This document shows, in pieces, positions 8,822 to 52,957 of a stretch of DNA of 64,000 nucleotides. The stretch spans positions 76,694,001-76,758,000 of the forward strand of contig OX597822.1 of the NCBI GenBank assembly GCA_951406725.2, in the 5' to 3' direction. Positions within the stretch are counted from its first letter, which is position 1. The number at the start of each line of letters is the position of its first letter. The notes beneath the pieces are model-generated. The model was not told the DNA's origin. It ran no database searches and was given only the letters and a program-made list of their open reading frames with translations. This DNA comes from Octopus vulgaris. Its lineage: Eukaryota. The translations under genes were made by a program, and so were the position numbers.

Positions 8822-8950
8822 ACAGTTCTATATTTAAGAGATGAATTATTTACATTTGACCACTATGCCATATGCCCATGGGCATATGGCGTAGTGGTTA
8901 AGAGCATGAGCTACTAACCCCAAAATTCCGAGTTCGATTCCAAGTAGTGA

Positions 8951-8992
<42 letters not shown>

Positions 8993-9132
8993 GGAAAAAT
9001 ACCTTAGGAATGAGAACCCAGGTTCGAAATTTCCCCAAGATACCTGATGAAGGCTGGAGGGTATATCAGCCGAAATTTTGTGTTAGCAACAAACAATATG
9101 AGGACAAATATCCGTCAAATGTAAATAATGTG
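8822..9132 (+). mobile_element. Family E: non-autonomous Penelope-derived element (tRNA-like head, (AAT)n, hammerhead) with an inverted 5' segment
   Basis: 12-bp TSD AAGTTGTGTCTT (8810-8821 / 9133-9144); 40-bp palindrome 8859-8898; A box TGGCGTAGTGG and B box GAGTTCGATTCC at about 8887-8941; HHR at 9039-9084; related copies at 41431, 42698 and 52469. Confidence 0.85.
9039..9084 (+). ncRNA. Minimal type I hammerhead ribozyme motif (family E)
   Basis: GATAC-CTGATGA-A-GGCTG(gagggtatat)CAGCC-GAAA-TT-TT-GTGTT: core intact, stem II GGCTG/CAGCC, stem I GATAC/GTGTT; family consensus stem III is the palindrome AACGTT. Confidence 0.75.
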
Positions 9133-27360: not shown

Positions 27361-27555
27361 TACGTTTACGGCTGTTAGACATATGGAATTCAAAAAGGTG
27401 GCTGATGGTGAAAAGATTAATAGAATTATGGTCATGATATAAATGCTACTCTTTTGGTTCCATTATTGCCATTTTTGTTCTGTTGTTGTTGTTGTTGTTG
27501 TTGTTGTTATAAAAATATATTTAATTTTTCCTTTTTTCCTGCTTTCTTCTTCCAG

Positions 27556-28023
27556 GAGGCAACAAAAGAAACAGTCCAGAAAGCTTAAAATTCAAAAACA
27601 GGAATTTTACATCCAACAGTGCTGATGAGAAGCTGAAACTAAAACATAACAATGTGTATTTAGAAGTGGACGGTACCCTAAAAGGCTACAAACATGTTTC
27701 TGAAAGTCTCAACAGTGATCCAATGGACCAGTCACATGGCCTTACCAAAGACGACAAATCACAAACAGAGAAAGAAAACAGCTTCAAAGCATCTGAGAAG
27801 GCAAAAGCCAAAGAAAAGGATGATAAACCATTCTTGGTAAATCCAGATCTAAAGCCACCTGGTGGAATTGAACATGTGGAATTCCTTACTGAAACATTCA
27901 ATGTGGCTTGGTTGGAGATATGTGGGAATTATCCTTGCCAGAAAAACAGCACTTGTGTTGTGGAAGGTAATGAGCCCCGATGTGACTGTCCTCTTGGAAC
28001 GACAGGGAAATTCTGCGAAGACG
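27556..28023 (+). CDS. Internal coding exon of an extracellular EGF-like-domain protein (agrin/pikachurin/EYS-like)
   Basis: Strong acceptor ttttttcctgctttcttcttccag| and donor G|GTAGGT; 468 nt, phase 1-1, open throughout. Encodes a charged linker followed by CGNYPCQKNSTCVVEGNEPRCDCPLGTTGKFCED, a six-Cys EGF module. Exact orthology cannot be determined from one exon. Confidence 0.88.
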
Positions 28024-28339
28024 GTAGGTAGACGCCACTTGGTACAGATTGTATAACTCTCTCTCTTTCTCTTTTCCTCTCTCCTTCTCTTCATCTCTGT
28101 TTTTTCCTCTCTCTCTCTCTTTTCCTCTCTCCTTCTCATCTCTCTTTCTTCCTCACTCTCTCTCTCTTTCATTTTCTCTTTCTTTTTGTCTCTTTCTGTC
28201 TCTCTTAAATCAAAATTGCATAGACATGCACAAATGCTCACAGCTTTTCACCATAATCCTCACCATCACCATAATCAACAGCAGCAGTGTAGCATCTCAA
28301 TCATGGTATCATTCTTGCCAGCATCTTTATCCTTTTAAT

Positions 28340-41260: not shown

Positions 41261-41430
41261 TTAAACTCAGACTGAAAATAATCACTGCAAACATTCTATA
41301 CTGTCTCTCTCAACTCAGCACATTCTACCTTCTACAGATTAAACATATTCTACATCATCAATCTACCACTGTTTTGCTGAATATTCATGTCATATGTTTA
41401 AGCTTATGATAAGAGATAGAACAAATCATA

Positions 41431-41900
41431 ACATTATTTACATTTGACGGATATTTGTCCTCATCTTGTTTGTTCTTAACACACCATTTTGGCTGATATA
41501 CCCCACCAGCCTTCATCAGGTGTCTTGGGGAAATTTTGAACCTGGGTTCTCATTCCTAAGGTATTTTTGATATTATTATTATTATTATTACTACTACTAT
41601 TATTATTATTATTATTCAGGTCACTGCCTGGAATTGAACTTGGAATCTTGGGGTTAGTAGCCCGTGCTCTTAACCATTACACCATATAACCGTGGGCAAT
41701 TATGGAGTGAATTTTTAGGGCTTATCTAATATTTTCCTATCCTTCCTTAATACTGGTTCCCATATGCTATTCATATCTGCACCTGATGAAGGCTGGAGGG
41801 TATGTCAGCCGAAACGTGTTAACAACAAACAAGATGAGGACAAATATCCATCAAATATAAATAATGTTCATAATTCCTCATCTCTTAAATATAAAGCTGT
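41431..41900 (-). mobile_element. Family E Penelope-derived fold-back: ORF end, tRNA-like head, (AAT)n and HHR, plus an inverted HHR arm
   Basis: Flanking duplication AAATCATA(ACATT) at 41423 and 41901; minus strand IWEPVLRKDRKILDKP* ends at 41715, tRNA-like head from about 41691; HHR motifs at 41478-41524 (-) and 41779-41820 (+). Confidence 0.85.
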
Positions 41901-42697
41901 AAATCATAACATTTTAATCATAACATTTGAAATGAGTTAGGCACAACAGATTGTTTAGCTTAATCATTAATAATTTATAAGGAAGTGGAAATTCCTCACA
42001 TCACCTTAGAGTAGCAAGACAATGTGAGACTAATGAGAAAATGGTGATCGCTATATCAGGTAATTAGTCATTTCTAAGATAGTGTTAATTTATTCTCAGT
42101 TTTATAATTAAAATTTGTTTCTTATTTTGTATGTAAACTGGAATTCTGTTGATTGTTTTACCTTATTTGGTATCCTATGTCTGGAATACTCTGGCTTCAT
42201 TTCAATAAGTTTCAAAGCAATGAAGAATTCCTCTTTGATCTTTAACTGCTTTGTCTTTGCACCACCTTGAAGAATTTTTGTCAAACGAATAGACCCCAGG
42301 GTTTTTTTTTTCTTCATGCCTGATACTTACTTTATTGGTACCTTGTACTGAACTGCTAAGTTACAGGGATATAAACACACCAACATCGGTGGTGAGGGAC
42401 AAACACAAGCACAAAGACACACACATTTAAATATATCTATATACGATGGGCTTCTTTCAGTTTCCAACCACCAAGTCCTTTCACAAGGTTTTGCTCAGCT
42501 CAAGATTATAATATAAGACACTTGCTCAAGGTGTCACACAGTGGGACTGAAACTGGAACCATGGGATTGGGAAGCAAACTTCTTAAAATAACTTTTATCA
42601 TATAGAAAAAGGAGTAGTTATAAACCCTTCATGCCCCAGGCCTGACATTTATAACTTCAATAATTACTCTATGTACAAAAAGTACCAGGAATGGTCC

Positions 42698-42957
42698 TTT
42701 AATACTGGTTCCCATATGCTGCTCCTATCGCCACTCAGTCTGCTAAGGAGCTTATTATGTCCTAGCATATGTACTGCTTCTTTTAGTTTTCCTATTTTCC
42801 AGTGGTGTTCTCTGTCTATTATTTTAACTTCATCCCACAGGGGGAGGTGGTCTCCATTTTACCATATGCTGTGTTAACAACAAACAAGCTGAAACATTGT
42901 GTTAACAACAAACAAGATGAGGACAAATATCCATCAACTGTAAATGATGTACAAATA
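42698..42957 (-). mobile_element. Penelope-like GIY-YIG endonuclease C-terminal fragment with an inverted family E tail
   Basis: 42870-42697 (-) reads IW*NGDHLPLWDEVKIIDREHHWKIGKLKEAVHMLGHNKLLSRLSGDRSSIWEPVLK; 8-bp TSD AATGGTCC (42690-42697 / 42958-42965). Confidence 0.8.
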
Positions 42958-43392
42958 AATGGTCCAATGGTTGAACATCAGGAGGTAGACTGTGTTGTGG
43001 ATTAGTCTTTTCTGTGAAATTGGGAATTGTGGTTGATGTAGTAATCTTCAACCATGTTGCCATAATGTTTTCAATGTCATATTCATCACTTTTGTTTTTA
43101 TCGCTTTCATTATCAAAATCTTCCTCGTCCAATGAAGATTCATAAACATCAATATCATATTCATCCAAAGAGAAATCACTTTTTTGTATATTTTGTGCAT
43201 CATCAAGAGTAAAACCTTCAAAGACAGAATTGCTTCTTGCTGCCACCATATCATTAAAAACTAAGATATACACTTCTCTTCAAACATTAAAAAGACCAAG
43301 CAGTCTCAAAAATATCACAGTATTTTTATTTGAATAAAGGCAGGAAAGGTTTTATCTTGCATTATCTCAAAGCTTCAAGAATTCAGTAATGT

Positions 43393-52468: not shown

Positions 52469-52642
52469 ACATTATTTACATTTGACAGATATTTGTCCTC
52501 ATCTTGTTTGTTGTTAACACAACGTTTTAGCTGATATACTCTCCAGCCTTCATCAAGTGTCCTGGGGAAATTTCGAACCTGGGTTCTCATTCCTGAGGTA
52601 TTTTTTAATGTTATTGTTGCTGTTGTTGTTGTTGTTATTATT

Positions 52643-52737
<95 letters not shown>

Positions 52738-52957
52738 CATTCAGCTCACTGCCTGGTAATGAACTCAGAATCTTGGAGTTAGTAGCCTGCTGTTTTAATC
52801 ACTATGCCATATGCCCATGGGTATATGGCGTAGTGATTAAAAGAGCAGGCTACTAACATCAGCCAAAACGTTGTGTTAACAACAAACAAGATGAGGACAA
52901 ATGTCTGTCAAATGTAAATAATGTAAATAATTCCTCATCTCTTAAATATAGAACAGT
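52469..52957 (-). mobile_element. Family E fold-back with 80-bp central palindrome
   Basis: TSD ATAGAAAGC(AC) at 52460 and 52958; palindrome 52778-52857; decayed HHR 52516-52561 (-); internal microsatellite expanded to (ATC/ATT/GTT)n. Confidence 0.85.

Follow-up and report, generated by a model that had tools for sequence, protein, structure and literature searches.

The terminal repeat (pLTR) of a coding Penelope-like element (PLE) in Octopus vulgaris opens with a tRNA-derived head, which probably acts as a polymerase III (Pol III) promoter whose transcripts would mostly give rise to short solo-pLTR copies. The original prediction had held that the autonomous element itself carries a tRNA-like promoter; the segment is indeed part of the pLTR, while we infer its promoter function from the places where copies end and from sequence signatures. 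Penelope/Poseidon elements as such are already known, and what appears to be new is a tRNA-headed pLTR with copies piling up at its head.

Two broken insertions and the element behind them

The window, i. e., the whole stretch of 64,000 nt of the 2.8-Gb octopus genome that was analyzed, holds on its minus strand two separate, broken Penelope insertions, A and B, which lie 0.9 kb apart (Table 1). The ORF piece of insertion A reads DHLPLWDEVKIIDREHHWKIGKLKEAVHMLGHNKLLSRLSGDRSSIWEPVLK (minus strand) and breaks off after EPVLK, where unrelated DNA and another repeat follow and no tRNA head is found. A Penelope-like endonuclease C-terminus had been proposed at 42870-42697 (-), and this identity stood up in BLASTP and in genome matches, while the frame is not stop-free, having an in-frame TAA just before NGDHL. 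The repetition of IWEPVL at 41768-41748 was recovered as SIWEPVL, and the proposed frame stop at 41715 (41717-41715) with a tRNA-like head about 25 nt further on turned out as described, the head starting 24 nt later at 41691. This stop is peculiar to insertion B, in which a 4-nt deletion has taken out the family stop together with an overlapping TATA-like word; in most copies, the ORF terminates with ...KILDL-stop. The hammerhead of insertion B is predicted to be inactive because GAAA has become AAAA and the cleavage triplet is altered as well, i. e., it is changed at two core positions.

Table 1. Features of insertions A and B in the window (positions counted from its first letter)
Feature	Position	Strand	Remark
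Insertion A, inverted arm: 3' part of the pLTR (hammerhead end and downstream sequence)	42887-42953	+	short duplicate at 42866-42892
Insertion A, GIY-YIG endonuclease C-terminal piece, broken, 168 nt	42699-42866	-	one in-frame stop near its start
Insertion B, inverted arm: hammerhead core to end of the ~30-nt Penelope tail	41780-41901	+	
Insertion B, likely target-site duplication of 8-13 nt, left copy	41901-41913		right copy 41423-41435, overlaps the element end by 5 nt
Insertion B, last ORF codons (22), ADMNSIWEPVLRKDRKILD	41715-41782	-	
Insertion B, linker from ORF to head	41692-41714	-	last 7 nt and first head bases form a short palindrome
Insertion B, tRNA-derived head	41616-41691	-	by alignment and inspection
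Insertion B, (AAT)n tract	41571-41616	-	length differs among copies
Insertion B, ATG, likely start codon	41551-41553	-	shares the hammerhead frame and, in full copies, also that of the ORF
Insertion B, minimal type I hammerhead	41478-41524	-	helix I 5 bp, CUGAUGA, extra A, helix II 6 bp
Insertion B, 3' end of the pLTR	41431-41477	-	stops at the first of two family 3'-end clusters; no tail here

Reading A and B as one interrupted element was ruled out, since an inverted pLTR arm of its own precedes each of them (88 % similarity between the two arms) and they differ in the ORF stretch that both contain. The claim that the long peptide (42866-42699) and the tRNA-headed module form a single element thus had to be given up, and a direct joining of ORF end and tRNA-hammerhead module holds in insertion B (22 codons in cis) and genome-wide, not in A. 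The window contains two further modules, at 8868-9131 and 52469-52831, each of them a fold-back that begins at the head. ARAGORN and Rfam, run on the window, called neither head nor hammerhead, both of which were recognized from alignments and by inspection.

Some neighboring features of the window deserve mention in their own right. Between insertions A and B lies a repeat of ~300 nt (42585-42275, minus strand) with about ten relatives within the window, which we take to resemble a common octopus SINE. Insertion A sits at the end of an acidic open frame of 125 codons (43279-42905, minus strand), presumably similar to a piggyBac transposase N-terminus, and a further open frame of 168 codons with ordinary composition (27525-28028, plus strand) is possibly a host-gene exon.

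In BLASTP, the window peptide matched the C-terminus of the protein P0001 with E 6e-21 (63 %) and the full-length P0005 with E 2e-15 (pairwise E-values, 19 proteins), and in the genome it gave 2,848 first-look candidates, of which 150 were scored, all 150 at E <= 2e-17. This comparison with genome and PLE proteins, foreseen as a possible refutation of the original prediction, identified the peptide as a PLE endonuclease C-terminus. A 282-aa piece from another locus (L031) led to 19 longer proteins among 823 candidates, the best being P0001 (68 %) and, at full length, P0005 (847 aa, 55 %); a precomputed RT domain is present in 18 of the 19. One genomic copy (L095) is stop-free over 563 aa and matches RVT_1 with E 2.6e-6 at 27.7 bits, just below the cut-off of 29.6. 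The endonuclease (EN) of the family aligns with P0017, for which Pfam GIY-YIG gives E 1.2e-6, with two tyrosine motifs, R, E, and two Cys/two His in register; the Pfam GIY-YIG model did not match the family's own EN, and EN pieces yielded nothing useful in Pfam or in a PDB sequence search. The family is an EN+ Penelope-like element with RT and C-terminal GIY-YIG endonuclease in one ORF. A zinc-finger-like CxxC motif, which the available text of PMC8557442 reports for the RT-EN linker of Neptune and Nematis, was looked for and is absent from the linker of the octopus family, and the EN is not N-terminal. Because the motif is lacking in the linker, the linker criterion of that paper, taken by itself, would place the family with Penelope/Poseidon.

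Near-full-length copies exist, all of them with stops or frameshifts and about 89-92 % alike to the majority sequence. In one copy (L102), the frame from the ATG before the hammerhead continues through the hammerhead into the ORF, and the N-terminus of P0005 has the same words as its translation (TPDDG...PKRCVNNN). Relatives were furthermore found at nine loci of metagenome contigs (30-55 % best-segment identity), none with the A/B-box pattern; one of these (L288) has a T-rich 3' UTR that lacks a head and is followed by a similar minimal hammerhead. Viral contigs gave no relatives and prokaryote genomes one weak match. A second, C-rich PLE family was met amid (CA)n repeats of the octopus genome (L327:3045-5458; G000:C4, about 90.475-90.477 Mb, plus strand). 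It has an open RT frame of 724 codons, a CxxC linker, and an overlapping GIY-YIG frame, is Neptune-like, and served as a control (see below).

Linkage of ORF, head, and hammerhead

In the majority unit, the order is ORF, 35-nt linker, head, (AAT)n, hammerhead, and tail, with the ORF frame crossing the hammerhead. The latter is of the minimal type I, with its core, the extra A, a 6-bp helix II, a palindromic 15.2-16.2 element, and a 5-bp helix I (read against the available text of PMC4209133). A head lies within 170 nt of 89 of the 99 distinct ORF ends, with the ORF-head junction at the same base in these 89, and a hammerhead is also present within 450 nt in 70 (head calls with a cut-off of 40, the highest shuffled score being 24). 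The 99 ends are loci from ORF queries, i. e., top-scoring matches and not a random draw. The ten ends without a head call comprise five with linker and partial head, two with linker only, one that goes no further than the stop, one into which another repeat cuts, and one that jumps to the AAT tract. Locus L332 represents a full unit with a module at both ends, the upstream head being truncated, while L330 and L331 are partial tandems, and inverted arms occur in many of the loci L043-L107. Most ORF ends might have turned out to lack the tRNA-like segment, which is clearly not the case; because of the headed ORF ends and of the module-ORF-module arrangement in L332, the autonomous element itself carries this segment, as had been anticipated.

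The copies bear a Penelope-type insertion footprint. Their 3' ends in 96 anchors (defined in the next section) cluster at 129-138 and 162-169, two sites ~30 nt apart that correspond to the Penelope tail, and RNA read ends on L094 (at 1230 and 1194-1200) have the same two-site spacing. Over 218 positions, no difference separates the majority sequence of 64 linked modules from that of 82 short ones, because of which we regard the short copies as solo pLTRs and not as a separate family. Treating them as a non-autonomous SINE lineage of their own was rejected on the same grounds and because their 3' ends are the PLE tail sites. A related scenario, in which a separate tRNA SINE that uses Penelope enzymes landed beside, or recombined with, some ORF ends, is largely refuted and hardly credible. 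It would fit the ~5:1 excess of short over ORF-linked modules and the slightly lower divergence of the short ones (in a set that includes 30 copies picked by likeness to the window copy), but leaves unaccounted for the constant junction base, the shared majority sequence, and a hammerhead part that doubles as ORF start. A non-LTR retrozyme with head-to-tail arrays of short units was likewise rejected, since in the sample copies occur singly and dispersed, as inverted pairs, or joined to an ORF.

Two observations concern other arrangements of the same sequences. Six matches of the linker 19-mer with ~150-nt spacing, beside an ORF-end match, form a small tandem array of ORF end and linker (G000:C2:16238330-16239247), and other repeats recur inside the (AAT)n tract of modules, seemingly their target (L078:2330-2990, L139, L151, L166, L188, L237).

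The tRNA-derived head and the starts of copies

When 15 host tRNAs found with RF00005 (eight isotypes, tRNA-Arg-ACG not among them) were compared with the head, tRNA-Arg matched best, with z 7.0 and 7.1 and 0 of 1,000 shuffles reaching these scores. By these alignments the head classifies as tRNA-derived, with A and B boxes at tRNA spacing. In the window copy we take the A box to lie at 41684-41674 and the B box at 41640-41630 by standard tRNA numbering; in this B box C56 is intact and G57 is changed to A. A functional tRNA was rejected as a candidate, since ARAGORN, applied to 147 heads, called none with default settings and 27 with a relaxed threshold, Rfam gave no tRNA or hammerhead match on eight loci (at E <= 5 only microsatellite-driven miRNA-type matches), and a cloverleaf fold was not found (z 0.29), the T stem being broken; part of the acceptor stem is still able to pair. 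Elsewhere, seven tRNA-Cys-like genes or pseudogenes are clustered within 3 kb (L263).

Copies pile up at the 5' end of the head. Exact, CpG-free 19-mers occur genome-wide 759 times at about -175 (ORF), 833 times at -23 to -5 (linker), and 4,043 times at +29 to +47 (head), i. e., copy number is flat over 150 nt and then rises by a ~fivefold step within 50 nt at the head's 5' end; reversed 19-mers as controls gave 0 matches. A 23-mer located before the hammerhead has 6,471 exact matches in the genome. From these, the 96 anchors were drawn by using the majority of the initial 100 listed for C1 and leaving out duplicates and those with <900 nt upstream; some anchors are two arms of one insertion, so that the counts are not fully independent. 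A head is present in 62 of them; most of the other 34 start in the AAT tract, a few very long tracts having been missed. While 18 of the headed anchors start inside the head, 44 reach its 5' end, where 37 stop at -17 to +4 and seven pass -60. The 18 internal starts and the 34 headless anchors count against a promoter at the head. The same start pattern was obtained with 30 loci picked by the head. In favor of RNA starts at the head, L328 begins at the head's first bases and extends 381 nt into the ORF; against them, of four ORF-front upstream pLTRs that reach the head's 5' end, three continue into an upstream ORF end (L114, L119, L136) and one stops (L124).

The pile-up could also arise if the head were a mere passenger, i. 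e., an old tRNA or SINE piece in the 3' UTR of an element read by Pol II like D. virilis Penelope, with the RT stalling and folding back at the palindrome. We consider this main competing reading unlikely, although several observations would suit it: the palindrome straddles exactly the head start, both further modules of the window begin there as fold-backs, three of the four upstream pLTRs just mentioned read through the site, and among the 37 head-starting copies 22 have an inverted arm in front and about 13 keep the upstream palindrome arm. Moreover, the available text of PMC3846280 reports for Adineta PLEs that self-priming occurs and that pLTRs have palindromes at their 5' junctions without a tRNA. 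However, the stem is merely 5 bp with a loop of 2 nt, only five of the 37 copies are contiguous fold-backs by a strict pattern, about 24 of the 37 start at -5 to +4 without the arm, many of them joined straight to flanking DNA, and a passenger predicts neither the C56 bias nor the missing TTTT described below.

Very improbable, in our estimate, is a role of the head as processing signal, with RNase P cleaving a long RNA where the tRNA-like fold begins and thus creating an RNA end. A start precisely at the first base of the head, seen in six copies, would agree with such a cut, as would the fact that most copies start within a few bases of it and the partly pairing acceptor stem. Against it, many copies still contain native sequence at -2 to -7, which lies upstream of the RNase P site, and the head has no cloverleaf fold and a broken T stem. 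Because native bases are retained to -4 or -7 in many copies, an RNA start near -6 is favored over a cut at +1.

Possible Pol III signatures and a proposed mechanism

If the head is a Pol III promoter, as we think probable, traces of its use may be expected in the copies themselves. The B-box base C56 is intact in 50 of 58 head-starting as compared to 53 of 82 ORF-linked copies (P 0.006; the 30 copies picked by likeness to the window copy are left out), a signal that was noticed post hoc at one of ten positions, amounts to about 0.06 after correction, and was re-tested on largely the same copies. No such difference between head-starting and ORF-linked copies was present at nine further CpG positions, one of them G57, at which A is tolerated. 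The C56 bias would be expected if a working B box in the template were a precondition for copies that start at the head.

The second signature is the lack of TTTT, which in the sense strand of the majority unit (2,718 nt) occurs 0 times, as compared to 30 times for AAAA. For the ORF (2,391 nt), 2.74 occurrences are expected from synonymous shuffles (P 0.036), which is a modest deficit in an A-rich sense strand (22 % T); the test was split into two ORF segments to avoid a variable site at which the majority ORF suffers from an alignment artefact. By comparison, TTTT occurs six times in the ORF of the Neptune-like control PLE of the same genome (4.93 expected) and 12 times in a LINE-like control (11.65 expected; five short pieces, two of them doubtful).

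In three raw RNA runs and one contig set, reads fall along the whole unit on L094, equally on both strands, and 74-79 % of the raw reads run on into unlike sequence, because of which these data are consistent with copies lying inside host transcripts. A pile-up of read ends at the head was not seen in the three raw runs, which are unstranded standard RNA-seq.

A start of the RNA at the head could also be due to Pol II, with the TATA-like word across the ORF stop (~30 nt upstream) as the guiding element and the A and B boxes being incidental. In the majority sequence this word lies at -36 to -29, the right distance for a start at -6 to -2. An upstream TATA assists some Pol III genes, too, so the word does not discriminate between the two polymerases. 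A TATA and an Inr-like word have been proposed for Adineta Pen2a (PMC3846280, available text). The short copies, however, lack the word and could not fire again, and both the C56 bias and the deficit of TTTT speak for Pol III, which makes a Pol II start decidedly improbable.

With the head as Pol III promoter, the following course of events is conceivable. TFIIIC would bind the A and B boxes, and Pol III would start about 6 nt upstream of the head. The RT-endonuclease would then prime at the tail inside the ORF start, like anole PAc does in vitro, and reverse copying to the RNA 5' end would yield a ~250-nt tRNA-hammerhead copy with an inverted arm, while priming at the downstream tail may lead to 5'-truncated ORF copies such as A and B. 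Since solo copies retain both boxes, they could fire again in SINE-like fashion. Whether this extends to the ORF is a more tentative matter: that the ORF-bearing RNA itself is made by Pol III from the same promoter is possible, though we lean against it. The same doubt applies to the element as a whole being a Pol III unit, in which the upstream pLTR head would drive a terminator-free RT-endonuclease ORF of 2.4 kb with cap-free translation and a SINE-like swarm of tens of thousands of copies.

PLE transcription and the need for a partial tandem are settled for one fly element only, and a recognizable type 2 Pol III promoter as pLTR would make the question of PLE transcription accessible to standard promoter assays. 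If true, the proposed role of the head would be a new mode of transcription for Penelope elements and a new source of short, SINE-like copies. It would furthermore suggest concretely how an autonomous PLE may give rise to a short, tRNA-headed hammerhead element of the Sm-alpha type and extend the SINE-LINE rule to Penelope enzymes. Should the ORF RNA be made by Pol III, it would be a rare protein-coding Pol III unit, and if the whole element is read in this way, a coding retrotransposon on a SINE-type promoter, LINE and SINE in one. On the practical side, repeat libraries would divide these copies between 'SINE' and 'Penelope'.

Comparison with known systems

A description of a tRNA-derived pLTR was not found in the literature searched; supplements, Repbase, Dfam, and subscription journals may hold the family. 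Cephalopod repeat papers (PMC13282606, PMC8967140, PMC6962438) name Penelope and SINE families, with no tRNA-Penelope link in their available text. In Schistosoma, Sm-alpha and Sj-alpha are tRNA-related, SINE-like hammerhead repeats with tens of thousands of copies that are reportedly transcribed by Pol III (PMC2770079, PMC6765202). According to the available text, these are non-coding, often tandem, and equipped with a canonical hammerhead, with no ORF or partner shown, whereas the octopus tRNA-hammerhead module is the terminal repeat of a coding element.

The short octopus copies also resemble animal non-LTR retrozymes and non-autonomous PLE derivatives (PMC7229834, PMC7761336, bioRxiv 10.64898/2026.07.22.740005; Chlamys MRC1, PMC8557442), which the available texts present as short, pLTR-related hammerhead copies thought to be moved by PLEs. 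Retrozymes, however, form tandem arrays and are said to be promoter-less (available text of PMC7229834, PMC7761336), whereas the octopus copies have A and B boxes and lie scattered as monomers or as inverted pairs. A word search of the available text of bioRxiv 10.64898/2026.07.22.740005 found neither 'tRNA' nor 'promoter'. With tRNA-derived SINEs (SINE2, as far as covered by the available text of PMC5786205, in which a word search did not find 'Penelope'), they share a 5' tRNA head with A and B boxes, a copy length of ~250 nt, and a 3' part from the autonomous partner. They differ in that this partner is a PLE and not a LINE, that the 3' end has no poly(A) or simple repeat, and that head and tail both lie within the autonomous element, with no separate lineage detectable.

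Closest in architecture are Poseidon_Ac of the green anole (PAc, PMC11167929), D. virilis Penelope (PMC2377424), and Adineta Pen2a (PMC3846280). As described in the available text of these papers, the three share with the octopus family a single ORF with RT and C-terminal GIY-YIG, a minimal pLTR hammerhead that overlaps the ORF start, and a ~30-nt tail, as well as partial tandems, an inverted 5' arm, and a short target duplication. In the anole, the PAc ORF starts inside the hammerhead and PAc primes at the tail in vitro (PMC11167929), and minimal hammerheads are general in pLTRs (PMC4209133); both statements follow the available text. The only promoter that has been dissected, according to the available text of PMC2377424, is that of D. 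virilis Penelope, which is internal, TATA-less, and LINE-like, with a spliceosomal intron. Unlike these three elements, for which the available text of the papers mentions no tRNA-derived segment, the octopus family has a tRNA head at the beginning of its pLTR and an accumulation of copy starts at the 5' end of that head.
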